A DNA stretch of 64,000 nucleotides from positions 2,711,217 to 2,775,216 of the forward strand of contig OY760504.1 of NCBI GenBank assembly GCA_963663705.1, written 5' to 3'. This stretch comes from Armatimonadota bacterium (GTDB lineage Bacteria; Armatimonadota; UBA5829; DTJY01). The stretch's first letter is position 1; every line of letters starts with the position of its first letter. A model generated the notes under the pieces. The model was not told where the DNA came from. It saw only the letters and a list, made by a program, of their open reading frames with translations, and did not search any database. Positions 311 to 62,000 of this stretch are shown here, piece after piece. The position numbers and the translations under genes were made by a program.

Positions 311-359
311 CGCATGACTATTATTGAAAATTTGGTCCTATAAGCTTTCTTGTGGGTGA

Positions 360-650
360 ATCTTCAGATTGCACTGATTCGGCCCTCGCCCCAACCAATT
401 TTGGGCGAGCGCGTTTTTGTTCCGCTTATCCCGAGTAGCCCACAGGGCATATCGAGGGACGGTACATGTCTACCAGGCTTCGGCAGCGGCGTCTTCGACT
501 CTGCAACCGAAGCATCTACGCACCCGTGAAGGGTGTGCCTACATATAGTCGGCGCAGGGCGGCTTCGTGTTTTTGTTGCCGCGAATTTATTCGCACGGTT
601 ATTGGAACACTGTCGCTATCCACAAACTTTCTTATAGAGCCTTAAATTGT
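360..650. repeat. About 290-bp non-coding element with a GC-rich hairpin and two conserved blocks; an inverted copy lies at 61340-61810
   Basis: Direct comparison: 420-512 matches the reverse complement of 61620-61712 over about 93 nt with 2 mismatches. 551-640 matches the reverse complement of 61341-61430 over about 88 nt with 4 mismatches. A hairpin ctcgccc...gggcgag sits at 386-414. Confidence 0.7.
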
Positions 651-687: not shown

Positions 688-1827
688 ATGTCACTGATAA
701 GAATCGGCTTCATCGGCGCGGGCTGGATGGGGTCTGTGCAGATGAAGAGAATAACCGAGCGAAACGACGCAGAGATCGTCGCGCTCTATGAGGCCAACCA
801 GGAGCGAGGCAGAGAAGTGCTCACAAACCTCGGCCTCTCCCCCGACATACTCGTAGACAATTACGAAGCGATCATCAACAACTCGGATGTCGATGCTGTC
901 TGGGTAGTGAGCCCGAACGCCTTCCACGCAGGACAGGCCATCGCAGCCATGAGAGCCGGGAAGCACGTCTTCTGCGAGAAACCGGCCGCCACAACCTTTG
1001 CCGACTACTGCGCCGAGATAGAGGCGGAGCGTGCGCACCCCGAGCTCATAACCTACGTAGACTACATACTCTACTTCGACAGCATGGAAGATCACCTTCG
1101 CCGTATGGTCGCAGGCGGCGAGTTCGGGGACGTCACCCAGATACAGGTGAACTACCGCCACCCCATAAATATCTCCGGCGACAAGGTCTGGAAGCTCAAA
1201 AAAGAGATCATGGGCGACGCCATCGGCATGGGAATAAACCACTCCATCTCCGTAATGGTAAACGTCATGAGCTCCCAGGCTAAACCTGCAGCAGTCTATG
1301 CCACCAGTACCCCCGCAAAGGTGCGGGGCTTCGAAGCAGACCCGGTCTGGAACATCATGGTTAAGTTCGACAACGGGGCGACCGGCTTCTGTGCGGGAAA
1401 CATTGACAACGGCAACGGGTATGACGCCTACCACAACATCTTCGGGACAGACGGCGGCTTCGTCTTCGACTCACAGCTTGAGAGGACACACAAAGTGCGC
1501 TACTGGTCCGCCAAGTCCACCGAAGGCAAGTGGGTCTACCCGCTCGATCCCGAAAAGTGCAAAGTGGAGGGACAGGAGGCGCTCATCTGGCCTGCGGACA
1601 CAACCACACCAGACAGCGGAAACGTTGTAGAGCACCAGACCGGCGCATGCGTCGGGCACTTCATAGAGTGCGTGAAGAGCGGGCAGAAGTCGCCGCTTTC
1701 GTTCGTGAACTCGTCGATCATAGCAGAGATCGGCTGGGCAGCGCAGATCTCCGCCAAGACAGGCAGTGAAGTACCTCTTCCGCTCGACTGGGCTGCGGCG
1801 AAGAAGTTTTTCGAGGCACAGCAGTGA
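688..1827 (+). CDS. Gfo/Idh/MocA family NAD(P)-dependent oxidoreductase
   Basis: N-terminal Rossmann motif IGFIGAGWMG; downstream EKP motif (FCEKPAA) typical of the family; 379 aa. Confidence 0.8.
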   Translation: MSLIRIGFIGAGWMGSVQMKRITERNDAEIVALYEANQERGREVLTNLGLSPDILVDNYEAIINNSDVDAVWVVSPNAFHAGQAIAAMRAGKHVFCEKPAATTFADYCAEIEAERAHPELITYVDYILYFDSMEDHLRRMVAGGEFGDVTQIQVNYRHPINISGDKVWKLKKEIMGDAIGMGINHSISVMVNVMSSQAKPAAVYATSTPAKVRGFEADPVWNIMVKFDNGATGFCAGNIDNGNGYDAYHNIFGTDGGFVFDSQLERTHKVRYWSAKSTEGKWVYPLDPEKCKVEGQEALIWPADTTTPDSGNVVEHQTGACVGHFIECVKSGQKSPLSFVNSSIIAEIGWAAQISAKTGSEVPLPLDWAAAKKFFEAQQ

Positions 1828-3113
1828 TTCAGATAAGAAGAACCAACAGCAATTTCGAGAGAGAACCTCTCACCGCACCATTCGGCTTCAAAGGCGGCTA
1901 CCTCTCCGAACTCTGGCAGAGTGTAGCACTCCTGGAGAGCGAGAACGGGCTCAAAGGCCTCGGCCTTGGCACGCAGAGCACACTTTGGTCGGACGCGGGG
2001 ATATTCACAAGCACCGCAGAATCAGCAGGAAACAGCCTGATGTATCTCATGACCGCATACGCGCTGAAACAGGCAGAAGGCATGGAGTTCAACACTCCCA
2101 TCGACCTGCTCGAACGTCTCCTCCCGATAACCTACGAATACGGGCAGAAGATCACAGGGAGGGATGACCTCCGTCTCACATTCGCCTTGAACGCGCTAGT
2201 GGCAGTAGACAACGCCGCCTGGCAGCTCTACGCGGCAGAGGGAGGCATCGCAATTTTCGATGATATGATCCCCGCTGATATCCGCCCTGCGCTCTCGCAT
2301 AGACACAGGGAACTCGCCAGCATCCCGCTCATGAGCTATGGGGTGCCGCTTCCCGGCATAATGCAGGCAGTGGAAGACGGATACTTCTTCCTCAAGATAA
2401 AGATCGGCTCCGACCCGAAGAAGGACGGCGACCGCGATAAGATGCTCGAGTGGGACAAGGCGAGGCTTGAGTCGATCCACAACGCCGTAAAAGACATAGC
2501 AACCCCATACACAGAGCACGGGCATATCCCGTACTACCTCGACGCAAACGGCAGGTACGATAGCAAAGACCGCCTGATGAGGTTTCTGGATCACGCGGAG
2601 CGGATCGGAGCGCTAGAGCGCATAATGATCATGGAAGAGCCGTTCCCGGAAGAGTATAGTGAAGATGTGCGAGACATCCCTGTGCGGCTCGCGGCGGACG
2701 AGAGCGCGCATTCAGATAAGGATGCAGCCGAGCGGATAGAGATGGGCTATGGTGCAATCGCCCTGAAGCCCATCGCGAAGACCATGAGCATGAGCCTCTT
2801 GATCGCAAAGCTCGCGCACGAGAAGGGAATCCCGTGCTTCTGCGCAGACCTCACCGTGAACCCTATACTCGTGGATTGGAACAAGAACGTTGCCGCCCGA
2901 CTCGCGCCGCTCCCGGGGATGAAGATCGGAGTGCTCGAATCGAACGGCCACCAGAACTACGCCCGGTGGGATGAGATGAAGTCATACCACCCATGTGCAG
3001 GGGCATCGTGGATGAACGCAGATAGAGGACTGTTCCATGCAGACTATGATTTCTATGCCCACAGCGGCGGAATCTTTGAGATGAGCGAGCACTATTGGAG
3101 GTTTGGGAAATGA
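1824..3113 (+). CDS. Enolase-superfamily enzyme (mandelate racemase / muconate lactonizing enzyme fold), putative sugar-acid dehydratase or epimerase
   Basis: GTG start overlaps the upstream stop (GTGA). KxK motif (KIKIG), metal ligands DANG, EEP and ADES at the expected spacing; 429 aa. Confidence 0.65.
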   Translation: MIQIRRTNSNFEREPLTAPFGFKGGYLSELWQSVALLESENGLKGLGLGTQSTLWSDAGIFTSTAESAGNSLMYLMTAYALKQAEGMEFNTPIDLLERLLPITYEYGQKITGRDDLRLTFALNALVAVDNAAWQLYAAEGGIAIFDDMIPADIRPALSHRHRELASIPLMSYGVPLPGIMQAVEDGYFFLKIKIGSDPKKDGDRDKMLEWDKARLESIHNAVKDIATPYTEHGHIPYYLDANGRYDSKDRLMRFLDHAERIGALERIMIMEEPFPEEYSEDVRDIPVRLAADESAHSDKDAAERIEMGYGAIALKPIAKTMSMSLLIAKLAHEKGIPCFCADLTVNPILVDWNKNVAARLAPLPGMKIGVLESNGHQNYARWDEMKSYHPCAGASWMNADRGLFHADYDFYAHSGGIFEMSEHYWRFGK

Positions 3114-4747
3114 GAACTGTCAAAGGCATCACAATACTGTCTCTGGTACTGGCGGTACTGTTTGTTTTATCCTCGCCATGTTTTTCAAATGCTGTAATAT
3201 GGGTCAAGGCCGGCTCAAGCTGGAGCGTGACTGGTGGGGACGATCTTCAGCAGCTCAAGCATCTGGCTTCGGGTGTCGGTTGGGAGTTTGAGCCGAATGC
3301 CGATACGGATGCGGCTCTTCAGAGAGTCGGGATAAAGACGATCCGCTGCATCAACGTCGATCCGTTGGGCGGTAAGTTTGATGAGAAAGGCAATTTCATC
3401 GTCGGGACGAACGATAAGCTGGATGCACATCTGCGATTATGCCGCAAGATCGGGGCTAATCCGCATGTGATTATTGCGGTGACTCTGCACCCGGACCTAG
3501 CTCTGAAGGCGGAGGATGTTAAGGACAAGAGCGAGTCGATCATGGGATTGGTGAGTTCGGCTACGTTGGGTCCTACGAATTGGCCTAAGTTTCGGAACTA
3601 CATTGAGGCGTGCTTCGAGTATGTGATGGTCACTAACGGCTTCAAGGATGCGGAGTTCGAGGTGTCGAATGAGCCTGATACGGGTGGTAAAGTCTATCCA
3701 TATCCGCCTCTGCCCGCTCCCGGCTCAAGAGCGCTCTACGAAGCCTATTTCAACCTGTACAAGAACATTGCCATGGCTGCTGAGAGCTTTGAGGTGAAGC
3801 ATCAGGGGACGAATTTGAGGCTTGGCGGCCCGGCGCTGGCGTGGGCGTTTACTTATAAGTTCGGAGACTTCAACTGGGCAGAGCGGTTCATCCGTGATTG
3901 TGGCGAGCAGAAGGTAAAGCTCGACTTTGTCGGACTGCACTACTACGGCAATATATCTTCGCTGGATGGTCAGTATCCATCTATCTATCCTTCTTTCACG
4001 GATATGTACAGGGTCACCGAGAAGGCTCGGGATGAGTACTGTCCTGGGGTGCCTATATACTTCACGGAGTGGGGTCCGAGCTATATCACGGACAATTCCG
4101 AGCCCTCTGCCATAAATGCAAACAATATGGGTGCGGCGTGGTCGGCGGCGTTTCTGAACGTTATGCTCCAGTGCAAGGTGGACAGCGCGCTCTACCTTAC
4201 TACTACTGACTTGCGAGCGAGAGACAAAGATGGTAAGTGGGAGGATATCTGGGGATGGCCGACGATGTTCGTGAATCCGTCGGTATTGGGGACGTACCCC
4301 AAGGCTCCGTTCCATGTCTTTGACATGATATCGCGGATGCAAGGTCACCGGGTGGAGGCGACTCGCGGAAGCGACACAGTCAACTGCATCGCATCGGCCG
4401 ACGCAAATGAGAAGAAGGTCGCTATGCTCGTCTGGAACTACGGTGCCGTCATTCCCGAGCATGGTGCAGCCATAGAGAAGGCGAAGCAGGAAAAGGTGGC
4501 CGTGCGCATTCGTGATGCTGTCTCTTTCTTTGGCGCCAGGAACATTAAGGTCCAACGATGGCTTGTAAGCAAAGACACGAGCAATGCTCATTACCTTTTC
4601 AAGAAAGGCGTCAAGCTTGATGACACAAACACAGCGCTCAAGCAGATAGAGAACGTAACCTACAAGGTCAAGGATGGCAAGCTGGATTTCAGCATCGTGA
4701 TGCCACCATCGAGTGTGTCGCTGGTGACGCTAACGACAGCAAAATAA
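3110..4747 (+). CDS. Secreted clan GH-A glycoside hydrolase (GH39-like TIM barrel plus C-terminal beta-sandwich)
   Basis: ATG at 3110 overlaps the upstream stop (ATGA). Signal peptide ITILSLVLAVLFVLSSPCFSNA. Acid/base-like NEP (VSNEPDTG) and nucleophile-like FTEWG motifs about 115 aa apart. Confidence 0.5.
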   Translation: MRTVKGITILSLVLAVLFVLSSPCFSNAVIWVKAGSSWSVTGGDDLQQLKHLASGVGWEFEPNADTDAALQRVGIKTIRCINVDPLGGKFDEKGNFIVGTNDKLDAHLRLCRKIGANPHVIIAVTLHPDLALKAEDVKDKSESIMGLVSSATLGPTNWPKFRNYIEACFEYVMVTNGFKDAEFEVSNEPDTGGKVYPYPPLPAPGSRALYEAYFNLYKNIAMAAESFEVKHQGTNLRLGGPALAWAFTYKFGDFNWAERFIRDCGEQKVKLDFVGLHYYGNISSLDGQYPSIYPSFTDMYRVTEKARDEYCPGVPIYFTEWGPSYITDNSEPSAINANNMGAAWSAAFLNVMLQCKVDSALYLTTTDLRARDKDGKWEDIWGWPTMFVNPSVLGTYPKAPFHVFDMISRMQGHRVEATRGSDTVNCIASADANEKKVAMLVWNYGAVIPEHGAAIEKAKQEKVAVRIRDAVSFFGARNIKVQRWLVSKDTSNAHYLFKKGVKLDDTNTALKQIENVTYKVKDGKLDFSIVMPPSSVSLVTLTTAK

Positions 4748-11959: not shown

Positions 11960-12240
11960 TCATCTGACAAAACTTCAGCCTGATCAGGATTGACCGCAAA
12001 TATCCGACGGTCTTAGCAAGATATTACCCTTTACCGTTTGTATTATCCCCATTATAATTGTACATGTTAAGTGTTGATACCTAATCTATGTAGAAATGTT
12101 CACTGAAGAAGCCGCCCGACCGGAAGACATGGATTTCATCTCGATCGTTACCCCGAACTACATGCACTACCCGGTGGCGATCTCATCTCTCGATGCAGGG
12201 CTTTCCGTAGGGTGAGACAAACCGATGACGCTGACACTTT
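11960..12240 (+). pseudogene. Relic duplicate of the 19.5-20.9 kb locus: AraC 3' end, intergenic promoter region, and an internal fragment of a Gfo/Idh/MocA oxidoreductase
   Basis: 11976-12070 matches 19531-19620. Both encode ...PDQD-stop followed by ttagcaagatattaccctttacc. 12130-12216 encodes MDFISIVTPNYMHYPVAISSLDAGLSVG[12 protein letters not shown], matching [37 protein letters not shown] of the 20503..21654 gene. No start codon; there is an internal stop. Confidence 0.55.
12014..12058 (+). promoter_or_regulatory. Operator-like motif TAGCAAGATATTAC followed by a TTTACC-N17-TATAAT promoter (relic copy)
   Basis: Motif at 12014-12027, -35 at 12030-12035, -10 at 12053-12058. Confidence 0.4.
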
Positions 12241-12469
12241 GCGAGGCCAAGGGTGTTCGCAGAATGCAGATTGTCGACAGAAAAAGATATCTTGCCCGTC
12301 GAGCTTATCGTTCGAAAGTGCACAGGTTAGATTGGCTGATATATCGAAGAAAAGGTAATAGTTATGCCACAGATTTGTGGATGGTGTGTGGAGGAGGGAT
12401 GAAAATATGGCATAAGTAAAGTGTCCTGTTTCAAAGGTATTCCACATTTTATAATGAAAGGGCGGTTTT

Positions 12470-13174
12470 ATGATGAAAGAAAAAAGAGGTTTCACCCTGA
12501 TTGAATTGCTAGTTGTCATAGCTATAATAGCTATATTGGCAGCAATCCTGTTTCCTGTATTCGCAAAGGCAAGGGAGAAGGCACGGCAGGCATCATGCCA
12601 GAGCAATGTTAAGCAGTTGACTTTGGGCATGCTAATGTATACTCAGGATTATGATGAGACACTCCCTCCCTGGATTGTAGGAATGAGCGGTACATTTCCA
12701 AATGGTGACCCGGCAAGTAGTGGAGACCCGGCGGGCTATCAGATATGGCTGACATGTATCTATCCTTATGTTAAGAACAACAAAGTCTTTGTGTGCCCCA
12801 GCGCTGGCGGATTGGACTATACAGGAGGACAGTACTGGGGGGGAACGTTTGGGGCTAATAATCCGAAGATCGCTTCGTATGGTGCGAATTCGTGGATACT
12901 GTCGAGCATATACACCGGCGGTGTTACGATGTCAGATATAAAAATGCCGTCGGATACTCCTTTTATAGCCGATTGTGATTACTATATGGTTGGACCATAC
13001 ACGGGCGGCGATGCTTATAACACTAGGGTGCCTGCGGCACGGCACAATGATATGGTAAACATTGGGTTCGCGGATGGCCATGTAAAGACGTGTAAACAGG
13101 ATGCTTGGGTCACTTCGGGCGGTAAATCGTGGCGCGACCCTGTATGGGTGAAATGGTCGCCGGATCTTCAATAA
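12470..13174 (+). CDS. DUF1559 / H-X9-DG protein with a prepilin-type N-terminal cleavage-methylation domain
   Basis: N-terminus [40 protein letters not shown]; C-terminal GFADGHVKTC motif. Confidence 0.85.
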   Translation: MMKEKRGFTLIELLVVIAIIAILAAILFPVFAKAREKARQASCQSNVKQLTLGMLMYTQDYDETLPPWIVGMSGTFPNGDPASSGDPAGYQIWLTCIYPYVKNNKVFVCPSAGGLDYTGGQYWGGTFGANNPKIASYGANSWILSSIYTGGVTMSDIKMPSDTPFIADCDYYMVGPYTGGDAYNTRVPAARHNDMVNIGFADGHVKTCKQDAWVTSGGKSWRDPVWVKWSPDLQ

Positions 13175-13496: not shown

Positions 13497-15539
13497 ATGG
13501 ATCTTAGATGCGAAAAATTGAGCCTTAGTGTAAACGGTCAAGGAATTGTGGAATCCGTACGACTTATCGATAAAGACTACGAGTTTATAACCGGTGCAGC
13601 AGGTTACTCGGCGGTCGAAGATTGCCTGCAGAATTCTATCAGCGGAGACCCTGATGGCGAGACTCCGCAGGCAGCGACCCGCGTAGAGAACGGCTCGATT
13701 TACGTCACGAGGTCATTTGCGAGCGGGCTTGTGATAGAAGATACCTTCTCATCCGATTCCGGTGCGGTCCGGTGGAGAGTGCATGTCTCTACTTCGGAAA
13801 AGACTCCTAGAACTGCGAATCTCTTTCTCGTTCTGCCGGTACTCGGGCAGGACCGGCACGTCTTCGTTACGCACAACGACGCACCGCTCTCGCCGGGGAA
13901 TTTCCGCCATGTGCGCTATGTGTACGGAGGCGATCAGTTCCGAGGCGAGCTGCACAGGGCTGTGGCTCTCCCAGTCGTTACGTTTTACAAGCGCGAGGCG
14001 GACGCCGGACTGACTTGTGCAGTACCCGCGGGCTTGCCTGTGCCTGCCATATGGTATTCGATGTTCCACGAGTCGGATAAGGTAGGCTTCGTGAGTAAAT
14101 TTGTGAACATGCGGCTCTCGGCCAAGCATCCGATCGAAGTTGAGATGCTCATACACGGGCATGGCGGCAACTGGCAGGACGGCTTGTCCTGGTATAGCGA
14201 CCGGTATCACGATTACTTCACGGTCAAGAACGAGGATGTCTACAGGACTGAGGGCGCTATGATCTGTTCGCACGTCCTGCACAGCGAAGATGAAATCAGG
14301 AGATGGAAGGCACAGGGCTTCGCATGGCAGGAACTTCATGCCAACATGCTCTCCTACTACGGAGAATACATGCCGGAGGGCGAGCGATGGGAGACGATCA
14401 ACTCCAAATACCTTGCCAAGAACTTGGACCTGCGGAAGCTCGCCGCTCTCGATCCCGTGGGCGTAGAGTACAACACGCTGACCCAGTGTGCGCCGGATCC
14501 GTATATGAGCAAGAACCGCCTGCGCGAGTACATCGATACTCTGCACAAGAACGGTGTGGCTGCTTTCATCTACTTTAACCCCGTACTCTGCGACAAACAG
14601 ATAGTGGGGAGGTTCGAGTCCGACATAGCTAGAAACGAAGACGGCACACCCTGTGCTAATGGATACTACTTTGGCGTAAGTATGAACCCGGACCCCAATG
14701 GAGGCTGGGGGCGTCATCTGATACAACAGGTCGAGCGCATGATGAGTGAGTTCCCGAACTGTGACGGCATATTCTACGATGAGGTGCATTACCGCCATTA
14801 CGATTTCGCCCACGACGACGGCATCACGATGGTTCACAACAAGCCATGCTCCATGATAGGCTTCGCGATGGCTGATCTGGCAGAGCGTATCTGCGGAATC
14901 GTGCATGCCGCCGGAAAAGTCGTTTGGGCAAACGGCCCGACAAGCCTGGAGGTTGTTAGATACCTGGACGGATGTATGGCCGAGCATAGCAGCACATGGA
15001 TGGGCACGGTGCAGTATTTCTGTCTGGAGAAGCCGATGGTGCTGCTCGCCGGCGGAGACCCTGTCGATAAGCTCTGGGACGGATTCAAAAAGTCATTGGT
15101 CTGCGGTGGGCAGCCGGACGTACTCTGGAAGCTCGATGAGCAGGCAATTTCCGGCGATAACAAGGAGAATCTCTCTCCGAAACCGGCCGACGATCCTGCT
15201 CGACAGGCGCTATGCACGGCGTTCAGACCTCTGCTCGATATGATCAAGGGGCGCAAGTGGGTGCTCCAGCCGAACGTGCTCGAACTACCTGAAGGCGTAG
15301 TCGGCAACTTTTTCGAACTCAGGGACGGCTCTATCGCCATACCTCTGGCTGTGGATCAGCCGCAGAGCAATGTAACGGTGAAGGTGAAGAATACACTTCT
15401 TCCCGAGTATGCAAAGGCTGAGGTAATTACAACGGAGGGCGCTATTGCATCAACTTTGCGTATCGGATCAGGGGATATGTATGCCTCGATAGACATACCT
15501 CTTCTCCAACATGCAGCAGTAATCCGTCTTAACAGCTGA
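13497..15539 (+). CDS. Conserved hypothetical cytoplasmic protein (680 aa), with a paralog at 62001
   Basis: Long ORF with a coding pattern and no signal peptide. It is highly similar to the 62001.. ORF. Conserved segments HGHGGNWQDG, YFNPVLCDK, VWANGPTS. No family assignable by eye. Confidence 0.6.
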   Translation: MDLRCEKLSLSVNGQGIVESVRLIDKDYEFITGAAGYSAVEDCLQNSISGDPDGETPQAATRVENGSIYVTRSFASGLVIEDTFSSDSGAVRWRVHVSTSEKTPRTANLFLVLPVLGQDRHVFVTHNDAPLSPGNFRHVRYVYGGDQFRGELHRAVALPVVTFYKREADAGLTCAVPAGLPVPAIWYSMFHESDKVGFVSKFVNMRLSAKHPIEVEMLIHGHGGNWQDGLSWYSDRYHDYFTVKNEDVYRTEGAMICSHVLHSEDEIRRWKAQGFAWQELHANMLSYYGEYMPEGERWETINSKYLAKNLDLRKLAALDPVGVEYNTLTQCAPDPYMSKNRLREYIDTLHKNGVAAFIYFNPVLCDKQIVGRFESDIARNEDGTPCANGYYFGVSMNPDPNGGWGRHLIQQVERMMSEFPNCDGIFYDEVHYRHYDFAHDDGITMVHNKPCSMIGFAMADLAERICGIVHAAGKVVWANGPTSLEVVRYLDGCMAEHSSTWMGTVQYFCLEKPMVLLAGGDPVDKLWDGFKKSLVCGGQPDVLWKLDEQAISGDNKENLSPKPADDPARQALCTAFRPLLDMIKGRKWVLQPNVLELPEGVVGNFFELRDGSIAIPLAVDQPQSNVTVKVKNTLLPEYAKAEVITTEGAIASTLRIGSGDMYASIDIPLLQHAAVIRLNS

Positions 15540-18683: not shown

Positions 18684-19544
18684 ATGGCAGTAGATAAATT
18701 GGAATTCTTAACCGAAATGGGAGAATACCTCCCGGAAATCACATGCATCGGACGTTCTATCTTCGATCCTGTATATGCAGAGGAAGAACACGTTGATAAA
18801 TCGTCCGAGCTCATTCACTTTCTGCATGGGCGCGGGGAGGTTCGGACCCGTGATTTCACTATATACGGCAAAGAGGGTGATAGTATCTACCTGCCTGCCG
18901 ATGTGCCGCATCGCGACATATTTGAAAAAGGCTATGCATTTGAAGCGTACCTGGTCCAATTCCGCTGGGCAGGCGAAGAGAGTTTGCTCAAGGCGTTTCA
19001 TCCGTCGCAGCTGGCCGATATCTCGGAGCCGGGTAAGCTGCGGATCGCCGCGGAATTTCAAAGCCTCTTTAGCGATTTTTCCGATCATATGCCTTTTGGG
19101 GCAGAGATGACTAGCCTGAACATTCTGCGCATCATAGCCATCATGTGCAGAGAGGCTGGAAATATTGCAGGGATGGAAGATCTTCACTCAAGCGATGTGG
19201 GCAAACCGCGGCGCGTGCAGTTGATGATGCAGGCCAAGCGCATTATCATGGATAAGTTCAACGAACCCATAAACCTTGCTCTCATCGCATCGCAATTGAA
19301 TATCAGTTCATATTACCTCTCGAGAGTCTTCAGCGAAGAGAGCGGGTTCCGGCTGTCGAGCTATCTGACCCAGATTCGCATGGAAAAGGCTGTCGCGATG
19401 CTCGACGATTCCCGCCTCAACCTCGCTGAAGTCGGGCGGGCCGTTGGTTTTAGCGATAGCCACTACTTCGGGCAGGTCTTCAAGGCTTATTTTGGAATAT
19501 CCCCCAAAGTTTACAGGGCAAAACTTTTGCCTGATCAGGATTGA
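18684..19544 (+). CDS. AraC family transcriptional regulator
   Basis: C-terminal double HTH (SYYLSRVFSEESGFRLSSYLTQIRMEKAVAMLDDSRLNLAEVGRAVGFSDSHYFGQVFKAYFGISP) with an N-terminal sensing domain. Confidence 0.8.
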   Translation: MAVDKLEFLTEMGEYLPEITCIGRSIFDPVYAEEEHVDKSSELIHFLHGRGEVRTRDFTIYGKEGDSIYLPADVPHRDIFEKGYAFEAYLVQFRWAGEESLLKAFHPSQLADISEPGKLRIAAEFQSLFSDFSDHMPFGAEMTSLNILRIIAIMCREAGNIAGMEDLHSSDVGKPRRVQLMMQAKRIIMDKFNEPINLALIASQLNISSYYLSRVFSEESGFRLSSYLTQIRMEKAVAMLDDSRLNLAEVGRAVGFSDSHYFGQVFKAYFGISPKVYRAKLLPDQD

Positions 19545-19564
19545 CCGCAAATAACCAACCTTCT

Positions 19565-19609
19565 TAGCAAGATATTACCCTTTACCATATGTACCATCAA
19601 CACTATAAT
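19565..19609 (+). promoter_or_regulatory. Operator-like motif TAGCAAGATATTAC plus a TTTACC-N17-TATAAT promoter for the isomerase/oxidoreductase/xylA operon
   Basis: Motif at 19565-19578, -35 at 19581-19586, -10 at 19604-19609. The region starts inside the last codons of the AraC gene. Confidence 0.45.
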
Positions 19610-19666
19610 TATTGCATACCAAGCATTTTTTTGAGGCCTGCTTGCCAGGCGACTCTGGAGGAAACG

Positions 19667-20506
19667 ATGCGATATGCGATGATGTCTTACACAATGGCTA
19701 TTGGAGACTGGGGTAAAGATTGCGACGTTGCCGAACTGTGTCACATAACCTCAACGATGGGCATTGAAGGAATTGATTGGGTTACGACTTACGGTGTCTC
19801 CCCGCGAGAAGTGAAGATCCTCATGGATGATCATGGCCTGAAAACGGTCTGCTACACCTTCGATGTTGATGTGAACTTTCCCGAGAGGAGTGCACGACAG
19901 GCTGGTGTGGATGATATCAAACGTGGAATAGACACGGCGCTGATTCTGGGTACGGACAGGGTGATGCTGCCTTTTCCCGGCAAAGATGCGTTCTCCCGCG
20001 AGGAAAGCCGTGCGAATATCATTGCAGGGCTCAGCGATGCGATGGATTATGCCAAATCGTGCGGTGTAATGATAAGCACGGAGCACTTCTCAACGCCTAA
20101 TGCCCCATTCATAGTCTCGGCGGATATGAACGCCGCCATCCGCGAACTCCCCGACCTCAAGGTGACATTTGACAGTGGAAATGTCCTCATCGGTGGAGAG
20201 AACCCTGTTGATGGATTCCTCCGCAGCAAAGAGTCCATTGTGCATGTTCATTTCAAAGATTTCGCAGAGAACGGATGTCGCTTTACCGGGCTTGATGGGA
20301 GATTGTATGACGCTGCGCTGATAGGGGAAGGCATTGTCGATTACCCGCCGCTTGTTGCAGCCATGATAGACGCCGGATATGACGGCTGGATCAATATAGA
20401 GTACGAAAGCGGTGAATATCCCGCAGACAAGGCTGTGCGTAAAGCCATAGATTACCTGAAATCCATAGAAGACCGGCTCATGGAACCAGCTGGGAGCAAG
20501 CTATGA
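19667..20506 (+). CDS. Sugar phosphate isomerase/epimerase (xylose-isomerase-like TIM barrel)
   Basis: TIM-barrel family pattern. RBS GGAGGA before the ATG at 19667. The longer ORF start at 19589 lies upstream of the predicted -10. Confidence 0.65.
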   Translation: MRYAMMSYTMAIGDWGKDCDVAELCHITSTMGIEGIDWVTTYGVSPREVKILMDDHGLKTVCYTFDVDVNFPERSARQAGVDDIKRGIDTALILGTDRVMLPFPGKDAFSREESRANIIAGLSDAMDYAKSCGVMISTEHFSTPNAPFIVSADMNAAIRELPDLKVTFDSGNVLIGGENPVDGFLRSKESIVHVHFKDFAENGCRFTGLDGRLYDAALIGEGIVDYPPLVAAMIDAGYDGWINIEYESGEYPADKAVRKAIDYLKSIEDRLMEPAGSKL

Positions 20507-21654
20507 ATCGAAAGATCAGAATGGGTATGGTAGGCGGCGGAGTAGGTGCATTCATCGGTGGTGCACACCGCATGGCTGCGCAATTGGATGGACAGATAGA
20601 ACTGGTCTGCGGCGCGTTCAGCTCCGATCGCGATAAGTCGATGGCGAGCGGGCGTGCTTTGTATCTGCCTGATGACAGAATTTACGGTAGCTATCAGGAT
20701 ATGTTTGCGAAGGAATCAGCCCTGCCATCGAGTAAGCGGATGGATTTCGTCTCGATAGTCACTCCGAACCACATGCATTATCCGGTGGCAATGGCAGCCC
20801 TCGATGCAGGGTTTCCTGTGGTATGCGACAAGCCGATGACGCTGACTCTTGATGAGGCCAAAGCCCTCGCGAAAAAGGTTGAAGAGACAGGGCTCCTGTT
20901 CTGCCTCACCCATAATTATACGGGTTATCCTATGGTTAAAGAAGCTCGTGATCTGGTTAACGGCGGCGCATTAGGTGCAGTACGGCGCGTGGTGGTCGAG
21001 TACCCGCAGGGCTGGATGGCGACTTCCCTTGAATCGACTGGTCAGAAACAGGCAGATTGGAGAACCGACCCTGCACGTGCAGGCGCAAGCTTCACTATGG
21101 GCGATATAGGCAGCCACTGCGCAAATCTTGCCGAGTACATCACCGGTCTTGAGATTGAGCAGGTTTGCGCTGATCTCACATCGTTCGTGCCCGGCCGTGC
21201 GCTCGACGACGACGGCAGCGTGCTCCTTCGCCTGAGCGGTGGTGCAAAAGGCGTACTCTGGGCGAGCGATATTGCCGTTGGTGAAGAGAACGACCTGAAC
21301 ATCCGCGTCTACGCAGAAAAAGGCGCGATCGAGTGGCACCAGCATGATCCCAACACCCTCATCGTTCACTGGCTAGACAAGCCAAGTGAGATTCGGCGAA
21401 CATCCACCGGCTTCGTAGGCGCAAACGCAGCCTCGAACACGCGCCTTCCTGCCGGACATGTGGAAGGCTTCCTGGAAGCGTTCGGAAACATCTACAAAAA
21501 CTTCGCCGACACACTGACCAAGCGGCTTGAAGGCGATACATCCGCAACCGGCGACTTCCCCACTGTAGATGATGGCGTCCGTGGGATGGCCTTTATTCAA
21601 TCAGTGGTAGAGAGTTCGGCATCTAATCAAAAATGGATAAATATCAAAGCTTAA
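20503..21654 (+). CDS. Gfo/Idh/MocA family oxidoreductase
   Basis: [17 protein letters not shown] Rossmann N-terminus; CDKP motif; ATGA overlap with the upstream gene. Confidence 0.8.
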
Positions 21655-27984: not shown

Positions 27985-28575
27985 TATATTATTCCTTGAT
28001 GCGTGTGCAGGGTGATAAACTATGATATATCGGATTGAGGCGTTTGAGCGTCACAAAATTTCGCATGGAATTTGCACGAACATGCGGAAGCGTGTAAGCT
28101 CCCTCATGTTCGATTTGTAATCATAATTTGCTATGTATGCCAGGCGTCAATTATTAATCTATCGATGCCTTCTAAGGAACATTAGCCCTGGCTTAACGCT
28201 GCTTATTAACCCGTCGAGCATTACTATACTTAGTCCCGAGGGCTCAGGTACGGGTGCTGCCGGTGATATGGCGATAAAGGTAGGCGCACCCACCGGATGA
28301 TCTGCTATTGCGGTAATTATATACCATGGCAACAGGATATTGTCAAGTAATAATGCAATAAATTGTTACTGTCCAGCGACTTTGTCCCGGTTAATTGTCC
28401 AGCGATTATGTCCCATCCAGATACCGTGAAAAATCAAAAACAATGGTGAAATTCTCCATTCACACGGTGTGCTGAAGATGGTAAACTTTGCTCATGATAC
28501 AGCCTCGATGTGATGAGTGCTTATCTGCAAGCGGGTTTTGCGGTGATATTTCGTCAAAGAACGAGGAGGACTAAG

Positions 28576-29187
28576 GTGAAGAGCAGGAGAGGTTTTACGC
28601 TGATCGAACTCCTAGTCGTCATAGCTATAATAGCTATTCTGGCGGCGATATTGTTCCCGGTTTTCGCCAAAGCACGCGAGAAGGCTCGGCAGGTCACCTG
28701 CCTGAGCAATCTGAAGCAGATCGGCACTGCAACGATGATGTATGTGCAGGACTACGATGAGCACTTTCCTCTCTTTGGCGGAGCAATCCGTTTCCCCGGT
28801 ACGATAAGCTGGGCTACGGCGATCTCACCGTATGTTAAGAACACACAGGTCTTTCACTGCCCGAGCGATAATCTGCCTGGTTCTACCTGTACTTATGGCA
28901 ACAACTACCAGCTAGCCGCATACACCTATCCGGAACGGTCGGTAGGGTCGATAATGCGCCCATCTTCGGTGATACTCTGGTACGAGAGCAACTACACGGA
29001 TACGAACTACCGGAAAATCGAGCAGAACGATTGGTCCGAAGGGTTCGGATTCGTCAATGGAAATGCCCATGCGAACGGCGCGAACTTCTGTTTTGCAGAC
29101 GGACACGCGAAATGGTATCCGGCAAAGACCGAGGCCGCCTGGACGCAGAACGGCATAAGCTTCAACCCGGATAACGATAGCATTTAG
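28576..29187 (+). CDS. DUF1559 / H-X9-DG prepilin-type N-terminal domain protein
   Basis: GTG start after RBS AGGAGGA; [36 protein letters not shown]; C-terminal FADGHAKWY. Confidence 0.85.
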
Positions 29188-29335
29188 CCATTAGCGTTTA
29201 TCCGTTCACGGCCTGCCCGGCAGGTCATGAACGGATAATAAAGTCCCGGGACAAAGGCAAGCCGCCGGGGTATTCGGCCGGCGAGGTAATGAAGCAAGAC
29301 GTAGTGATGCTACGAACAAAACGAGGAGGATTATT

Positions 29336-29947
29336 ATGAGGAATAGGAAAGGTTTCACGCTGATCGAGCTCTTAGTAGTAATAGCCATAATAGCGATACT
29401 GGCGGCTATACTCTTCCCGGTCTTCGCGAAGGCTAGGGAGAAGGCCCGACAGACCGCTTGTGCGAGCAATCTGAAGCAGATCGCCACCGCTACGCTGATG
29501 TACGTGCAGGACTACGACGAGTCTTTCCCCCTGTTCGGTGCAGGGAATCGCTTCCCGACGACAATAAGCTGGGCTATGGCAGTCTCGCCTTATGTTAAGA
29601 ACAGACAGGTATTTAGATGTCCGAGCGACGGGCGCAGTGGTATTACATGCAGCTATGGCAATAATTACAATCTAGCGCCGTACAACTTGTCGGCTCGGAT
29701 GCTCGGTTCGGTGCTGCGTCCGTCTTCCATAATACTCTGGTACGAGAGCAACTTCTGGAATTCGGATTACTGGCTGATCGAGCAGCATGACTGGGCGAAT
29801 GATTTCTCGACCGTCAATACAACGATCCATTCGGACGGTGCGAACTTCGCTTTTGTCGACGGGCATGTGAAGTGGTATCGCGTCGGCAGAACCGGCGATT
29901 GGACGCAGAACGGCATCAGCTACAATCCCGACAACGACAGTCTCTAG
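29336..29947 (+). CDS. DUF1559 / H-X9-DG prepilin-type N-terminal domain protein (tandem paralog)
   Basis: [39 protein letters not shown]; C-terminal FVDGHVKWY. High similarity to 28576..29187. Confidence 0.85.
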   Translation: MRNRKGFTLIELLVVIAIIAILAAILFPVFAKAREKARQTACASNLKQIATATLMYVQDYDESFPLFGAGNRFPTTISWAMAVSPYVKNRQVFRCPSDGRSGITCSYGNNYNLAPYNLSARMLGSVLRPSSIILWYESNFWNSDYWLIEQHDWANDFSTVNTTIHSDGANFAFVDGHVKWYRVGRTGDWTQNGISYNPDNDSL

Positions 29948-39525: not shown

Positions 39526-39584
39526 TGCAGAAATATATCATTACTTGTACAATACAAACGCACGTGCCTCGGGGATCCTCGTCA

Positions 39585-39830
39585 AAGCAGTGCACCGACT
39601 TTCCCTGGTTTTTTGCACGCATCGGCTGCTCGTACGATCCGTGCCTTGTATGCCGCCGAGAATCTCCTGCGTCCACTCGTCGCCGATACCTTCGGATCGG
39701 GAGTGTTTACAGATGCCGGATTACCTGATGCATCTAACTTGTTTGAATCCATTCCATGCCTCCTCGCCCTCTACACTAATTATACACTGGAGGCTGTTTC
39801 ATATATATTGACACAGAGGGTAGGCCCGAT
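39585..39830 (-). repeat. 245-bp direct duplicate of the IS3 5' terminus plus the first 56 codons of orfA (a second copy is at 40983-41218)
   Basis: Near-identical nucleotide runs, aagcagtgcaccgact ... ggctgtttcatatatattgacacagaggg, in both places. Confidence 0.8.
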
Positions 39831-40773
39831 CAAGCGTTTCGTTGCGAGCCTGGCTGACCGATTCGGCCATGCCATAGTGAACCATCTCCGGCGTCAGCAG
39901 GGCTATCCTGGAGTGATGATGCTCCTGATTATACCAATCGAAGAAGGTACCGCAGAATCCTCGTGCATCTTCGATGCTGCCGAATCTCTCCGGAAACTCC
40001 GGCCGGTATTTCATCGTCTTGAAATGGCTCTCCGAGAACGGGTTGTCATTTGATGTATACGGTCGGCTGTGCGTCTTGGTCGCCCCAAGGTCCGAGGGTA
40101 GCATCGCTACACATTTCGATCTCATAGATGAGCCTCGATCGGCATGGAGCGTGAGCTGCTTCGGGTCTGCTTCCTGTTTCCGTATAGTTTCACTTATCAG
40201 ATGCTTTGCCAACTCTGCGTTCTCCCTATATGCGATCATCCAGCCCACTACGTATCTGCTGAATACGTCGATGATCACGTAGAGATAGAAGTAGGTCCAC
40301 TTTGCAGGGCCTTTGAGTTTGGTTATATCCCAACTCCAGAGCTCGTTCGGCCGGGTGGCAAGCAACTCGGGTTTGGCATATTCTCCATGCTTTGTCTGGT
40401 TTCTGCGTTCACGGACTTCTTCGTTCTTATTGAGAATCCGATACATCGTGCTGATCGAGCAGAGGTAGACGCCTTCATCGAGAAGTGTGGCGTAGATCTC
40501 TGATGGTGGCATGTCCACGAACCTCTCGGAGTGCAAAACATCCAGAATGTGATCCCTTTCATTGTCAGATAGGGCACGCTCAGGCGTGATCGACTCTCTT
40601 GGTGGGACTGGATTGTCTTTGCGCTTCCAGAACCGATATGCCGATGCACGTGCGATACCCAACGCCCGACAAGCCTTTGTCCAGTTTGTAATGGAAGCCA
40701 GTCTCTTCGCAGCTTCCATTATTTCTCCTCTTCGGTCGAGATGCTCGTCGGAGCTATTCCAAGAATCTCGCAC
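39799..40773 (-). CDS. IS3-family transposase OrfB (integrase core), expressed as an OrfAB fusion by -1 frameshifting
   Basis: 324 aa; DDE motif. It overlaps orfA by 55 nt in the -1 frame. Confidence 0.85.
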   Translation of the reverse strand: MRDSWNSSDEHLDRRGEIMEAAKRLASITNWTKACRALGIARASAYRFWKRKDNPVPPRESITPERALSDNERDHILDVLHSERFVDMPPSEIYATLLDEGVYLCSISTMYRILNKNEEVRERRNQTKHGEYAKPELLATRPNELWSWDITKLKGPAKWTYFYLYVIIDVFSRYVVGWMIAYRENAELAKHLISETIRKQEADPKQLTLHADRGSSMRSKCVAMLPSDLGATKTHSRPYTSNDNPFSESHFKTMKYRPEFPERFGSIEDARGFCGTFFDWYNQEHHHSRIALLTPEMVHYGMAESVSQARNETLDRAYPLCQYI

Positions 40774-41150
40774 AAGTTTTTTTGGAACTCGATGATGAGC
40801 TCTGCCCCTTTGAGCTTCCTCTGCGTCCGTTCAAGTTCTCGGCGCAGTTTTTCAACTTCGGGAAGAAGCGGGTTCTTCGTCGGCTTCCGCCCGCGCTTGT
40901 CGTCGGTGAGTGCGACTTCGGCTCCATGCCGATATTCTCTGCGCCATTTCGTCAGATTAGAAGAATACAGTCCTTCTCGCCGAAGCAGTGCACCGACTTC
41001 CCCTGGCTTTTTGCACGCATCGGCTGCTCGTACGATCCGCGCCTTGTATGCCGCCGAGAATCTCCTGCGCCCACTCGTCGCCGATACCTCCGGATCGGGA
41101 GCGTTTACACATGCCGGTTTACCTGACGTATCTAACTTGCTTGAATCCAT
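40719..41150 (-). CDS. IS3-family transposase OrfA (HTH)
   Basis: 143 aa; typical IS3/IS911 OrfA with a leucine-zipper-like C-terminus. Confidence 0.85.
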   Translation of the reverse strand: MDSSKLDTSGKPACVNAPDPEVSATSGRRRFSAAYKARIVRAADACKKPGEVGALLRREGLYSSNLTKWRREYRHGAEVALTDDKRGRKPTKNPLLPEVEKLRRELERTQRKLKGAELIIEFQKNLCEILGIAPTSISTEEEK

Positions 41151-41220
41151 TCCATGCCTCCTCGCCCTCTACACTAATTATACACTAGAGGCTGTTTCAT
41201 ATATATTGACACAGAGGGGA

Positions 41221-41340
41221 GTGCGCAGCATATGGCTCAGGAACGATCTTGAAACTTTCAAGAAAAGACTCGCAGCACTTTCCGCCAAAGTAGCCCAGGA
41301 GAACTACATTCTCACTGAAGATTGGACCGGCACTCTCAAA
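41221..41340 (+). pseudogene. Fragment of an IS481-like transposase, cut by the IS3 insertion
   Basis: It begins exactly at the IS3 end with GVRSIWLRNDLETFKKRLAALSAKVAQE. This continues the HTH region of the family represented at 11696..11902. Confidence 0.4.
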
Positions 41341-41344
41341 CGGA

Positions 41345-42490
41345 CACTTTATCAGGCAACTTTCACGGCATCGGCTTCAAACTCCACCGGGCTCTTGTAT
41401 CCAAGGTATGAGTGCATCCGTTGCCTGTTATAGAACACTTCTATAAAGTTGAAGATTTCCCTTCTTGCCTCATCTCGGGTAGTGAACTTCTTTCTGTATA
41501 TCAGTTCTTTTTTCAGGGTGCAGAAGAAGCTCTCTGCCACGGAATTGTCCCATGGATCTCCTTTCCTGCTCATAGAACACCTCATCTGGTGATTCTTAAG
41601 CAGTCTCTGATACTCCTTGCATGCATATTGGCCCCCTCGATCCGAATGGTGGATCAATCCTTCTTTCGGTCGCCGCGTTGTTACCGCCATTGCGAGCGCA
41701 TCCTGGGCGATCCTGCTCCTGAGACTTTTGCCCATAGACCAGCCGATTACCCGGCGTGAATACAGATCTATCACGCTCGAAAGAAACAGCCATCCTTCAT
41801 CTGTCCATATGTACGTGATATCGCTTACCCATACCTTGTTTGCGGCATCCACACGGAAGTCGCGCATCAGCAGGTTCGGATATACTTGGAATCTATGGTT
41901 TGAATCGGTTGTTATTCGGAAACGCCGCCGTCGCCTTGGGGCTATCCCAAGCTTACGCATAATCTTGCATATACGCCGCCTGCTGCAGTGTATGCATTCT
42001 CTTCGCATCTGTCGGCAAATTCTTCGGCTGCCGTACCTATCCCACTGTTTTTGAATATCGCAAGTACTTTGGAGCAAAGCATTTCTTCCTGTGCATCTTT
42101 TCGATTGGCAGCTATTGCCCATTGATAGTAGCCGCTTTTCGAAACTTTCAGCACTTTACACATGACGACGATATGGAACTGCTTGCTGTTTTGGCTGATG
42201 AACCGGTATCTCATCGCAGTTCCTTCGAGAAGATACCGATTGCTTTTTTTAGTATATCCCGCTCTTCAGTGACGCGGGCGAGCTTACGTCTCAGTCGAAT
42301 CAGTTCTTCGTGTTCGCTTGGCGCAATAGGCTTTTTGCCGTCCGGCCTTGTGCCGAACTCTCTCACCCATCGGCTCAGGACGTTCGGTGCGACCCCCAGT
42401 TCCCTGGCAATTTGGGATGTGCTCTGGTCACTTTGTTCTACAAGTCGGACCGATTCTGCTTTGAATTCATTTGTCTATTGTCTTTTTTTC
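41345..42490 (-). mobile_element. Second, different IS3-family element; degenerate (orfA start frameshifted, orfB split)
   Basis: orfB core 41352..42122 has DRGGQY and GDPWDNSVAESFFCTLKKE. The orfB N-terminal part (CKVLKVSKSGYYQW) is in another frame at 41942..42214. The orfA-like VEQSDQSTSQIARELGVAPNVLSRWVREFG lies at 42250-42455 and has no in-frame start. Confidence 0.7.
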
Positions 42491-54940: not shown

Positions 54941-54967
54941 TGTTTTGCTAGTAACCCATGTTACGCG

Positions 54968-55017
54968 CCAGCCGTAAGTTCTTAAAGCTACTTGTAAGCG
55001 CTTGCTAGTGCAGAGCG
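54968..55017. promoter_or_regulatory. Conserved about 50-nt intergenic block containing the AAGCGCTT palindrome (paralogous block at 59721-59770)
   Basis: gccagccgtaagttcttRaagctRNttgtaagcgcttgctagYgcaga is shared by the two sites. The core TAAGCGCTTGC also occurs at 8583-8593. Confidence 0.4.
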
Positions 55018-55251
55018 GTACAGCTTGGCCTTCACGGCAAAATGGTTCAACCTGTGCGCTGTGCTAAGAATTGCCAGCTTTGCGTAAGCGTATATGCTGG
55101 CGAAGAAATGGTTGCCTTGAGTCGTCACCGTTTTTGTCGGTGATTTTGCAAACGATGCGTTGGATTTTTTGGAGTTGTGATACTCTTCGACCTTATCGCA
55201 ACCCCCATCGGCTTGTTCGAACCTATTTTCCAGTCATTACATATCGCCTGC

Positions 55252-55288
55252 TGGTTGGCTAACCTGCAGGCGATATGCGCAACGTGAG
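55252..55288. promoter_or_regulatory. Perfect 12-bp inverted repeat, catatcgcctgc-N13-gcaggcgatatg; a degenerate copy lies at 59894-59930
   Basis: Seen directly. It lies 32 nt 3' of the minus-strand 55320 gene stop and about 310 nt upstream of the 54940 operon start. Confidence 0.4.
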
Positions 55289-58451: not shown

Positions 58452-58886
58452 ATGCCTTACCCTCCCAAATGCATATCTATCAAGAAGCTTATGTAGTACG
58501 GAGCGTGAATCGCAAGGAGATTGCTGCCCCTGCGCCTCATAGAAACATTGTACCACTTGACACGGCCGTCACCCAAAACACATTGTCGCACCCATTGTGC
58601 CTGTCACCCTGCGGAAGATATCAACGGCATTCCTCACATCGTTTCCACACATGCTGCATTTCTCCGATCTCGGTCTCAAGGGTTCCGGTGCGGTGGAGTA
58701 AAGGGTACAAAACCTCCACCGCACCGAACTATCATATATTACGGCTTTGTAGCCGCACCATCGTACGACGGAGTCATGCTTATGGGAAAAATCCGCCGTT
58801 TGGATGATTGCTTTCGTCCTAAATTCGAATGCTGCCGGCCACCCAGCCGGGCCGGCAGCAGAGAGTCCAACTAAGGAGGGTCAGTT

Positions 58887-59549: not shown

Positions 59550-60073
59550 TTCTTTTCCTCCATTTCGTAGTGTGAATTACTGTTCCGAAAAACCATTACT
59601 ATGCCGGTTTTTTCTACTCTGCCACCCCCTTTCCCAAAACCTTGCCATATCCTTTGCCGAATCGTTTTGGCAAAAATAGCTAAATAACTTACGTTAAGCG
59701 CCAGATAGGTTCGTAGTCATGCCAGCCGTAAGTTCTTGAAGCTGATTGTAAGCGCTTGCTAGCGCAGAAAGCCCTGTGGCCGTAGTGGCGTCAAAGGAAC
59801 AGATAAGATAGTCAGAGTATAGATCGAGCATGTGTGCTTCATATAACTATTTTATCACAACGCCAACTGGCTGTTCCACCGATTTTCTAGTCATTACATA
59901 TCGCCTGCTGCTGGCTAACCTGCCAGACAGGTGCGTAGCGAGCTAGTAAATCAATTATAGGTTCATATCGCTATATGCACAATAGTCGATATTTAGTTTG
60001 GACATATTTTTTGTTTGTTGACTAATCTTCATTTTTGTCTATAATTTACATAGGTGTTTTGAAGAGAGTTTAT

Positions 60074-61339: not shown

Positions 61340-61810
61340 TGATTCTTAATAAAAAAATGGCTCCATAAGAAAGTTTGTGGATAGCGACAGTGTTCCGACA
61401 ACCGTGCGAGTAAATTCGCGGCAACAAAAACACGAAGCCGCCCTGCGCAGACTCAAAAATACCCCAACTGTATCATAGCTGTCCAAAATCCCCTCACCCC
61501 AACCCTCTCCCGAAATCGGGCGAGGGAGAAGTCTTATCGATATGAGTTCGTACTTCACACTTTCCCCATACCAAACAATGTCATTCTGAGCGTAGCGAAT
61601 CTTCTTCCTAATGAGATCCTTTGAGGTTGATGCTTCGGTTGCAGAGTCGACGACGCCGCTGCCGAAGCCTGGCAGACATGTACCGTCCCTCGATATGCCC
61701 TGTGGGCTACTCGGGATAAGCGGCATCTCCCCTCGCCCGAAATCGGGAGAGGGCGAATCAGATTCACCCACAAGAAAGCTAATAGAGCCATTGAATTTAT
61801 GGTGGCCGGT
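61340..61810. repeat. Inverted, expanded copy of the 360-650 element, carrying two GC-rich hairpins
   Basis: Blocks A and B are conserved. There is an about 190-nt insertion between them. Hairpins ccctctcccgaaatcgggcgaggg (61513-61536) and ccctcgcccgaaatcgggagaggg (61727-61750). Confidence 0.7.
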
Positions 61811-62000
61811 CATTATTCAAGGTTGGTGGAACTAGAGAAGTCATGGCAGACAATATTATAACAAGTGTGAGGGATGTTACCTGGGGGTTGCCATCGAGAA
61901 TTTGGAATAAAAGAATCTAAGGAGAATACTAAACTGTTGTCGGTTTCCAAATATGTCAGATTAACGCTATGCATGCTTAATTCGTGGGGAGGAATTATCT

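Follow-up and report, generated by a model that had tools for sequence, protein, structure and literature searches.

A hairpin-rich inverted repeat near both ends of a 64-kb stretch of bacterial DNA is very probably a modular transposable element carrying BoxC-pattern hairpins

In a 64,000-nucleotide stretch of DNA from an Armatimonadota bacterium (assembly GCA_963663705.1, contig OY760504.1; the whole stretch is referred to below as the window) a hairpin-rich repeat lies close to both ends in inverted orientation. Here we present evidence that these two repeats are, very probably, copies of a modular MITE (miniature inverted-repeat transposable element), a small non-coding transposable element, and that they reached their positions by independent insertions in opposite orientation. 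We favour this reading because the repeat has terminal inverted repeats (TIRs) at its exact boundaries, is accompanied by a duplication of fixed 8-bp length, occurs in many dispersed intergenic copies and contains no transposase gene. A first-pass annotation of the window had offered a structured small RNA, a MITE or REP-like mobile repeat, and a recombination substrate as possible explanations, and it is the MITE that the evidence bears out: the repeat ends in TIRs, two copies elsewhere have perfect 8-bp target-site duplications (TSDs), at least 18 copies are dispersed over intergenic DNA, and the repeat has no capacity to encode a protein. Elements of this kind are common and the core finding is ordinary; the family itself is new and is known from one strain.

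A repeat search of all 64 kb identified window 334-641 (plus strand) and 61359-61789 (minus strand) as inverted copies of one repeat, connected by three collinear inverted matches: 333-363 with 61760-61790 (31 nt, 90%), 422-519 with 61626-61723 (98 nt, 97%) and 547-654 with 61346-61453 (108 nt, 90%), the last of which contributes 95 nt at 94.7% identity to the element proper. The inverted, hairpin-rich element reported at both window ends is thus real, although the limits first given for it (360-650 and 61340-61810) lie slightly inside or outside the true ones. Its two conserved blocks, first put at about 93 and 88 nt, are also real and correspond to the 98-nt and 95-nt segments, which we call blocks A and B. 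The 24-26-nt probes drawn from each block have exactly two matches in the window, where shuffled sequences predict none. In the pairwise alignment the likeness starts abruptly at GG(T/C)(C/T)CTAT and stops abruptly at ..TTAT(A/G)GAGCC in both copies, and these limits give lengths of 308 bp for copy 1 and 431 bp for copy 2. The variable insert described between the blocks is present, but with 27 nt in copy 1 (520-546) and 172 nt in copy 2 (61454-61625) it is smaller than the first estimates of about 40 and 190 nt. The element was also taken to be non-coding, and this stands: a 155-aa open reading frame (ORF) spanning copy 2 (61346..61813, minus strand) is not preserved in copy 1, and copy-spanning ORFs, whose frame and module content shift from copy to copy, hit no Pfam family even when E values up to 10 are allowed.

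The ORF called across copy 2 served as a protein query for finding further copies. Seven homologues (P0123-P0129) lie on the 3,780,622-bp contig that holds the genes of the window, among them one for a protein 100% identical to the Gfo/Idh/MocA protein beside copy 1, and one homologue lies on a metagenome contig of the European Nucleotide Archive (ENA), and an exhaustive HMMER search added seven more (P0131-P0137), six of them in the same genome. What these ORFs translate is one set of DNA modules, in frames and combinations that change from one ORF to the next; they are artefacts of gene calling and, as such, reveal where further copies lie. Five loci beyond the window were seen as DNA, on contigs from ENA sample ERZ21878447 and Logan run ERR12015701 (labelled L001 to L007), which belong to the same strain as the window: L003 differs from window 58441-64000 by indels only, with no mismatches, and L006 is 100% identical to window 1464-4497. 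L004, L005 and L007 carry one locus each and L002 carries two, since it ends inside the element on both sides, where the assembly broke within the repeat; L006 begins within a Gfo/Idh/MocA gene and stops short of copy 1. Counting window copies, ORF-marked copies and DNA loci together, one 3.78-Mb genome holds at least 18 distinct loci. The copies are 298-540 bp in size and 82-91% identical in pairwise comparison over common columns; they are intergenic wherever the context is known, and their orientation relative to neighbouring genes is inconsistent. A profile search of the window and the other loci detected neither additional copies nor fragments, and a concatenated six-frame pseudo-protein query covering all frames returned nothing.

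At least 15 short 'hypothetical proteins' of the public annotation (among P0121-P0137) are ORFs called across copies of this MITE. The element therefore accounts both for the conspicuous repeat and for short hypothetical ORFs, as artefacts that could otherwise seed a false protein family, and it also breaks short-read assemblies, as L002 illustrates.

The ends of the element form imperfect TIRs of about 26 bp, reading GGNNCTATAAG..TTGTGGRT on one side and ..CCACAAACTTTCTYATAGAGCC on the opposite side; the likeness between copies stops at GGNNCTATAAG... and ...CTYATAGAGCC. As inverted repeats the two ends agree at 16-17 of their first 26-30 positions, a level reached by 0 of 20,000 shuffles, and they have in common an outer GG..CTATAAG and an inner TTGTGGAT. 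Inspection of the copy edges for TSDs, which the first-pass annotation had proposed, gave a clear result at two loci outside the window. The copy at L005 6850-7389 is bounded by a perfect 8-bp duplication, AAAGCGGT, and that at L007 9879-10176 by another, TTTTTGTT, in both cases abutting the ends exactly; the background rate of identical 8-mers at that spacing in the same sequences is 5e-5. In the copy on L004 the ends are damaged, and AAAATG stands on either side of it.

According to the multiple alignment the modules follow one another in the order left end GGNNCTATAAGCTTTCTTGTGGRTGAATC, a hairpin module H1, block A, a variable linker, and block B ending ..CTATCCACAAACTTTCTYATAGAGCC. The linker is a 27-nt hairpin in short forms (copy 1, L007), while in long forms (copy 2, L005) it measures about 170-220 nt and includes a second hairpin module, H2, oriented oppositely to H1. 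Every copy in which the left part survives has H1, in intact, truncated or decayed form, and H1 therefore appears to be an original part of the family. The GC-rich hairpins first described as CCCTC(T/G)CCCG-AAAT-CGGG(C/A)GAGGG structures do exist, but they do not flank the element: those at 61503-61526 and 61730-61753 sit within copy 2, and copy 1 has only a decayed version at about 383-411, with a plus-strand T-run after its H1 module. Some copies have been rearranged further. L004 is without block A, its deletion junction falling in the CCCGATTTCGGG core that H1 and H2 have in common, and in P0126 and P0127 the first half of block A is joined to the end of block B. The features of both window copies are collected in Table 1.

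Table 1. Positions of the two copies of the element in the window and of their component modules.
Feature	Position	Strand	Evidence or remarks
Copy 1, short form, 308 bp	334..641	+	Repeat search, alignment, nhmmer E 1.9e-91; LacI-family gene stop (310) on one side, Gfo/Idh/MocA gene start (688) on the other
Copy 1, left TIR GGTCCTATAAGCTTTCTTGTGGGTGAAT	334..361	+	16/30 positions match the reverse complement of the right end; outer GG..CTATAAG and TTGTGG core common to the right end
Copy 1, degenerate BoxC-type hairpin module H1, CTCGCCC..GGGGCGAGGG	379..413	-	Aligns with the complete triplex motif in L007 and L002
Copy 1, block A with predicted stem-loops GCCC-ACA-GGGC and GCTTCGG..CCGAAGC	422..519	+	
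Copy 1, short linker with CACCC-GTGAA-GGGTG hairpin	520..546	+	Replaced by a 172-nt segment in copy 2
Copy 1, block B including right TIR (..GCTATCCACAAACTTTCTTATAGAGCC, 615-641)	547..641	+	
Copy 1, 8-bp flanks: left GAAAATTT, right TTAAATTG	326-333; 642-649		5/8 match; decayed or uncertain TSD
Copy 2, long form, 431 bp	61359..61789	-	Repeat search, alignment, nhmmer E 1.4e-157; AraC-family gene (60035-60919) on one side, disrupted gene starting at 62001 on the other
Copy 2, left TIR GGCTCTATTAGCTTTCTTGTGGGTGAAT	61762..61789	-	
Copy 2, H1 hairpin CCCTCGCCCGAAATCGGGAGAGGG	61730..61753	+	Blocks 1 and 2 of the BoxC pattern; third block absent
Copy 2, block A	61626..61723	-	97% identical to 422-519
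Copy 2, long-form insert	61454..61625	-	Common to L005 and L004, also P0123, P0124, P0125 and P0128
Copy 2, H2, complete BoxC/TM_ECO intrastrand-triplex motif by pattern, CCCTCGCCC-GATTTC-GGGAGAGGG-TTG-GGGTGAGGG	61491..61526	-	
Copy 2, block B including right TIR (61359-61385)	61359..61453	-	

The long-form insert (61560-61600 on the minus strand; L005 7125-7150) contains the short motif ..GATTCGCTACGCTCAGAATGAC.., with reverse complement GTCATTCTGAGCGTAGCGAATC, which probably recurs in intergenic DNA of many unrelated bacteria.

A model for the spread of such an element would run as follows. A transposase encoded elsewhere in the genome would bind the imperfect TIRs in trans. As a DDE transposase it would insert the 300-540-bp element into AT-rich intergenic DNA by a staggered 8-bp cut, the repair of which would leave the 8-bp TSD. 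Once dispersed, the copies would diversify through internal deletions and insertions at the GC-rich palindromes. The GGCTCT termini and the 8-bp duplication are the reasons for which an ISL3-like partner transposase is favoured on sequence grounds. The ISL3-family element ISArsp7 has inverted repeats GGCTCTTCGCGGTTGGTGGTGAAT and 8-bp direct repeats (PMC6305408), and ISL3 transposases have been credited with moving a 187-bp MITE that occurs in Microcystis aeruginosa PCC 7806, has GGCTCTTCG ends and is accompanied by 8-nt duplications (PMC11448079). The end of our element shares with that of ISArsp7 the GGCTCT start and an inner GTGG(G)TGAAT, a likeness of only about 15 positions, and differs from it at positions 7-18; IS6, IS1595 and IS256, other families with 8-bp TSDs and GG ends, are candidates as well. 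We infer that the transposase would be of an ISL3-like family, that the MITE family may be mobile at present and that copies may have some effect on neighbouring genes.

The called genes of L001-L007 include no ISL3 transposase. The two transposase genes of the window (39799-40773 and 41352-42122, both on the minus strand) are of the IS3 family; they were considered as partners and rejected, as they have no matching ends, and the 3-5-bp duplications made by IS3-family elements also counted against them. An ORF at 61116-61280, entertained as the remnant of an IS630 helix-turn-helix domain, was dropped for lack of Pfam or NCBIfam support.

Several observations weigh against the reading of these repeats as a MITE mobilised by a transposase of the host. 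The flanks of the window copies match at only 5 of 8 and 4 of 8 positions. The window and the loci contain no autonomous element with matching TIRs, nor does the DNA around the IS3-family transposases of the window match the MITE ends. The end of IS26 (IS6 family, 8-bp TSD), GGCACTGTTGCAAAGTT, is about as similar to the TIR as that of ISArsp7, so that an ISL3-like partner is no more than favoured. Exact 22-24-mers from block A and from block B with its TIR gave 0 matches in other genomes, metagenomes and viral contigs, in scans of collections that did not contain the source genome, and the evidence accordingly rests on one genome. Finally, no polymorphism between filled and empty sites was seen among the contigs compared, all of which are of the same strain. 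As a possible empty site we considered L001, which has a 50-nt spacer before its Gfo gene, and rejected it: the upstream gene is another one, and 80% identity marks it as a paralogous locus.

A rival reading is that the copies are instead structured small RNA genes or cis-regulatory RNAs, their hairpins being functional RNA helices. The plus strand folds far below shuffled controls (-118.3 kcal/mol, z -4.6), and a gene starts 47 nt downstream of copy 1. However, the opposite strand folds nearly as well (z -3.4), as expected from DNA palindromes and TIRs, which produce such folding. The Rfam and covariation checks suggested by the first-pass annotation both went against an RNA: Rfam families were matched neither at gathering score nor, apart from one hit at chance level (E 6.6), when E values up to 10 were allowed, and compensatory changes were found at 0 of 57 predicted pairs, while the substitutions in L005 disrupt 7 of the block A pairs and the covariation term comes out positive. 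Furthermore, the copies are not consistently oriented to neighbouring genes, whole blocks have been lost from some of them, and a simple scan for promoters and terminators found nothing above shuffle expectation. An RNA function for the family is therefore improbable.

Still less probable is a cluster of palindromes of the repetitive extragenic palindromic (REP) type, or bacterial interspersed mosaic elements (BIMEs), spread by a REP-associated tyrosine transposase (RAYT, IS200/IS605-like). The GC-rich imperfect palindromes of 24-36 nt and the BIME-like mosaic organisation would suit such a cluster, but the unit measures 300-540 bp, has defined TIRs and is bounded at two copies by perfect 8-bp duplications, which REPs do not make. 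Moreover, the hairpins start with CCCTC and are without the GTAG or CGTC head tetranucleotides that define the two REP superfamilies (PMC3733652), and in 129 kb the palindromes are found only inside the element. The REP-like option of the first-pass annotation thus fails on size, TIRs and TSDs.

The same annotation had raised the possibility that the two copies bracket about 61 kb as a recombination substrate. In this scenario the pair would be functionally linked, either as arms of a 61-kb composite transposon or as junctions of a recombination-driven inversion. Mobile genes, the IS3-family transposases, do lie between the copies, and inverted blocks of 98 and 95 nt at 95-97% identity are enough for homologous recombination. 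Yet just 3 of 8 positions agree between the outer flanks GAAAATTT (326-333) and ATTGAATT (61790-61797), which thus form no composite TSD, and the flank pairs that an inversion predicts, compared by hand, match at 3 of 8 and 0 of 8, below the 5 of 8 and 4 of 8 of the direct pairs. L003 shows the same junctions on either side of copy 2. By our arithmetic, a family of at least 18 copies spread over 3.78 Mb gives a copy a chance of about 0.4 of having a neighbour within 61 kb. The bracketing thus looks coincidental and a functional link very unlikely. An inverted pair 61 kb apart is a potential substrate for homologous inversion, and nothing indicates that an inversion has happened or that the arrangement is functional. 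A simple local duplication without mobility, the outcome to which the first-pass annotation would have reduced the element had only two copies existed, with neither covariation nor expression, is suggested by the two copies in the 64-kb window and is refuted by at least 16 further loci in the same genome, five of them seen as DNA.

The GC-rich hairpins of this MITE are, by sequence pattern, BoxC/TM_ECO triplex motifs. BoxC, also known as PIT or TM_ECO, is an intrastrand-triplex motif with the pattern CCCTCNCCC-N3-6-GGGNGAGGG-N3-GGGNGAGGG (Holder et al., 2015; PMC4666352), catalogued 3,610 times in 262 proteobacterial genomes; it was linked to local deletions, and in E. coli it was reported as solitary and intergenic, with no association with transposons, phages or plasmids (PMC4666352). 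In the approximately 129 kb made up of the window and L001-L007, exact matches to the pattern occur at window 61491-61526 (minus strand), L002 1-36, L003 10267-10302, L005 7204-7239 and L007 9915-9950, all inside MITE copies. The 'arm-swapped' versions of the hairpin remarked upon in the first-pass annotation are explained by a single mismatch, CCCTCGCCC opposite GGGAGAGGG, which corresponds to the 'mm' that marks the most frequent E. coli type (PMC4666352, Table 1 therein). When copy 2 was compared with plasmids and phages by blastn, the triplex module was the sole match, a 45-nt stretch in plasmids of E. coli, Pantoea, Enterobacter, Variovorax and others. Of 5,426 complete E. coli genomes, 4,573 contain matches to the 48-nt module (86-90% identity), in a median of 4 places per genome, one example being the phnD-phnE spacer, and H2 is 86-90% identical to copies in E. 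coli and other proteobacteria. A triplex-variant pattern had 0 matches in viral contigs.

These findings suggest that triplex motifs can be multiplied as cargo of a MITE. A more far-reaching proposal, which we advance tentatively and consider unlikely on balance, is that BoxC/TM_ECO motifs are not always solitary and immobile, and that in this host they are an integral, ancestral module of a transposable element. In a stronger form of this proposal the motif may itself play a part in transposition, its structure being recognised or exploited, for instance, by the transposase or in the course of replication. If the motif is indeed such a module, hitch-hiking on a MITE would offer this strikingly conserved motif one way of multiplying within genomes and perhaps of passing between phyla. 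Such a vehicle would provide a testable mechanism for its multiplication, and the motif, for its part, would cause the internal deletions through which the MITE diversifies. The deletion variant on L004, with its junction between two motifs, offers a concrete example of the instability attributed to triplex motifs. Our literature searches returned no paper linking the triplex motif to MITEs. A 2024 review of prokaryotic MITEs (PMC10969869) makes no mention of triplex motifs, ISL3 or Planctomycetes, and neither that review nor the literature searches yielded a MITE from Planctomycetes or Phycisphaerae.

Among the genes next to the copies, the Gfo/Idh/MocA protein beside copy 1 has its nearest named relatives in metagenome-assembled genomes of Phycisphaerae/Sedimentisphaerales. 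Its gene forms a pair with an enolase-superfamily (MR_MLE) gene (688-3113) that recurs, at about 80% nucleotide identity, on L003 (5148-7573), just past the right end of the window, and on L001, and at least three such paralogs are found in the same genome (P0001, P0002, P0028). MITE copies adjoin several Gfo pairs (copy 1 and both ends of L002), an adjacency that may be fortuitous, the genome being rich in sugar-utilisation genes. Beside copy 2 lies a gene (62001-64000) that is probably a pseudogene, because it has an in-frame TAA at 63144-63146 (..FESDIARN*DGTPC..) where a 680-aa paralog at 13497-15539 reads E (..FESDIARNEDGTPC..); neither gene matches Pfam or NCBIfam. In the same strain, L003 1-1848 carries two tyrosine-recombinase (Phage_integrase) genes at some 8 kb past the window's right end, which hints at an integrated element nearby.

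The window contains other repeats. Between 39578 and 42122 a 246-nt direct repeat (39578-39823 and 40976-41221, 94%) lies just downstream of each IS3-family transposase gene, and the two genes with their repeats are probably two related or nested insertions of IS3-family elements, with ends unlike those of the MITE. Paralogs with a DUF1559 domain and a prepilin-type N-terminal methylation motif, which are typical of Planctomycetes, occur at 12129-12803, 19519-20861, 28510-29947 and 58887-59549 (by Pfam for the last) and account for the repeat families D1, D4-D7 and D10. Lastly, 54967-55253 and 59721-59910 share two direct repeats (48 nt, 92%; 33 nt, 94%) with the same spacing of about 4.7 kb, which flank a 1078-aa Laminin_G_3 gene (55320-58556) and a DUF1559 gene and may be duplicated intergenic or regulatory segments.

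Among known systems, the element can be compared most directly with the ISL3-mobilised MITE of M. aeruginosa PCC 7806 (PMC11448079). Both are small, non-coding, multi-copy and mostly intergenic, and both have imperfect TIRs starting GGCTCT, 8-nt TSDs and predicted stem-loops. However, the two sequences are alike in no more than the first 6 nt of the end, and our element is larger (300-540 bp), with modular long and short forms and triplex motifs. Furthermore, matching ISL3 copies were found in Microcystis, whereas here the partner is a postulated one, with an ISL3-like transposase favoured. The end of ISArsp7 (GGCTCTTCGCGGTTGGTGGTGAAT; PMC6305408) likewise resembles the left TIR of copy 2 (GGCTCTATTAGCTTTCTTGTGGGTGAAT) in its GGCTCT start and GTGG(G)TGAAT inner motif, as well as in the 8-bp direct repeats, although our element has no transposase gene and this likeness of about 15 positions is pairwise only.

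With BoxC/PIT/TM_ECO (PMC4666352) the element has in common the exact pattern, the 'mm' mismatch, the occurrence of oppositely oriented pairs and the association with deletions. In E. coli the motif was reported as solitary, whereas here, in a non-proteobacterial host, every instance in the roughly 129 kb lies inside an element bounded by TIRs and TSDs; the likeness is one of sequence pattern. The BOX elements of Streptococcus pneumoniae, with their boxA-boxB(n)-boxC arrangement, provide a parallel for the modular anatomy, in that conserved terminal modules with inverted-repeat ends enclose a variable middle, and they too occur between genes in many copies, are predicted to form strong secondary structure and often have ORFs called across them (PMC10969869). 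There is no sequence relationship between the two, and BOX elements vary by the copy number of a module, whereas the present family varies by unrelated insertions and deletions. In contrast to BOX, the 8-bp TSD of this element points to a defined DDE transposition mechanism.

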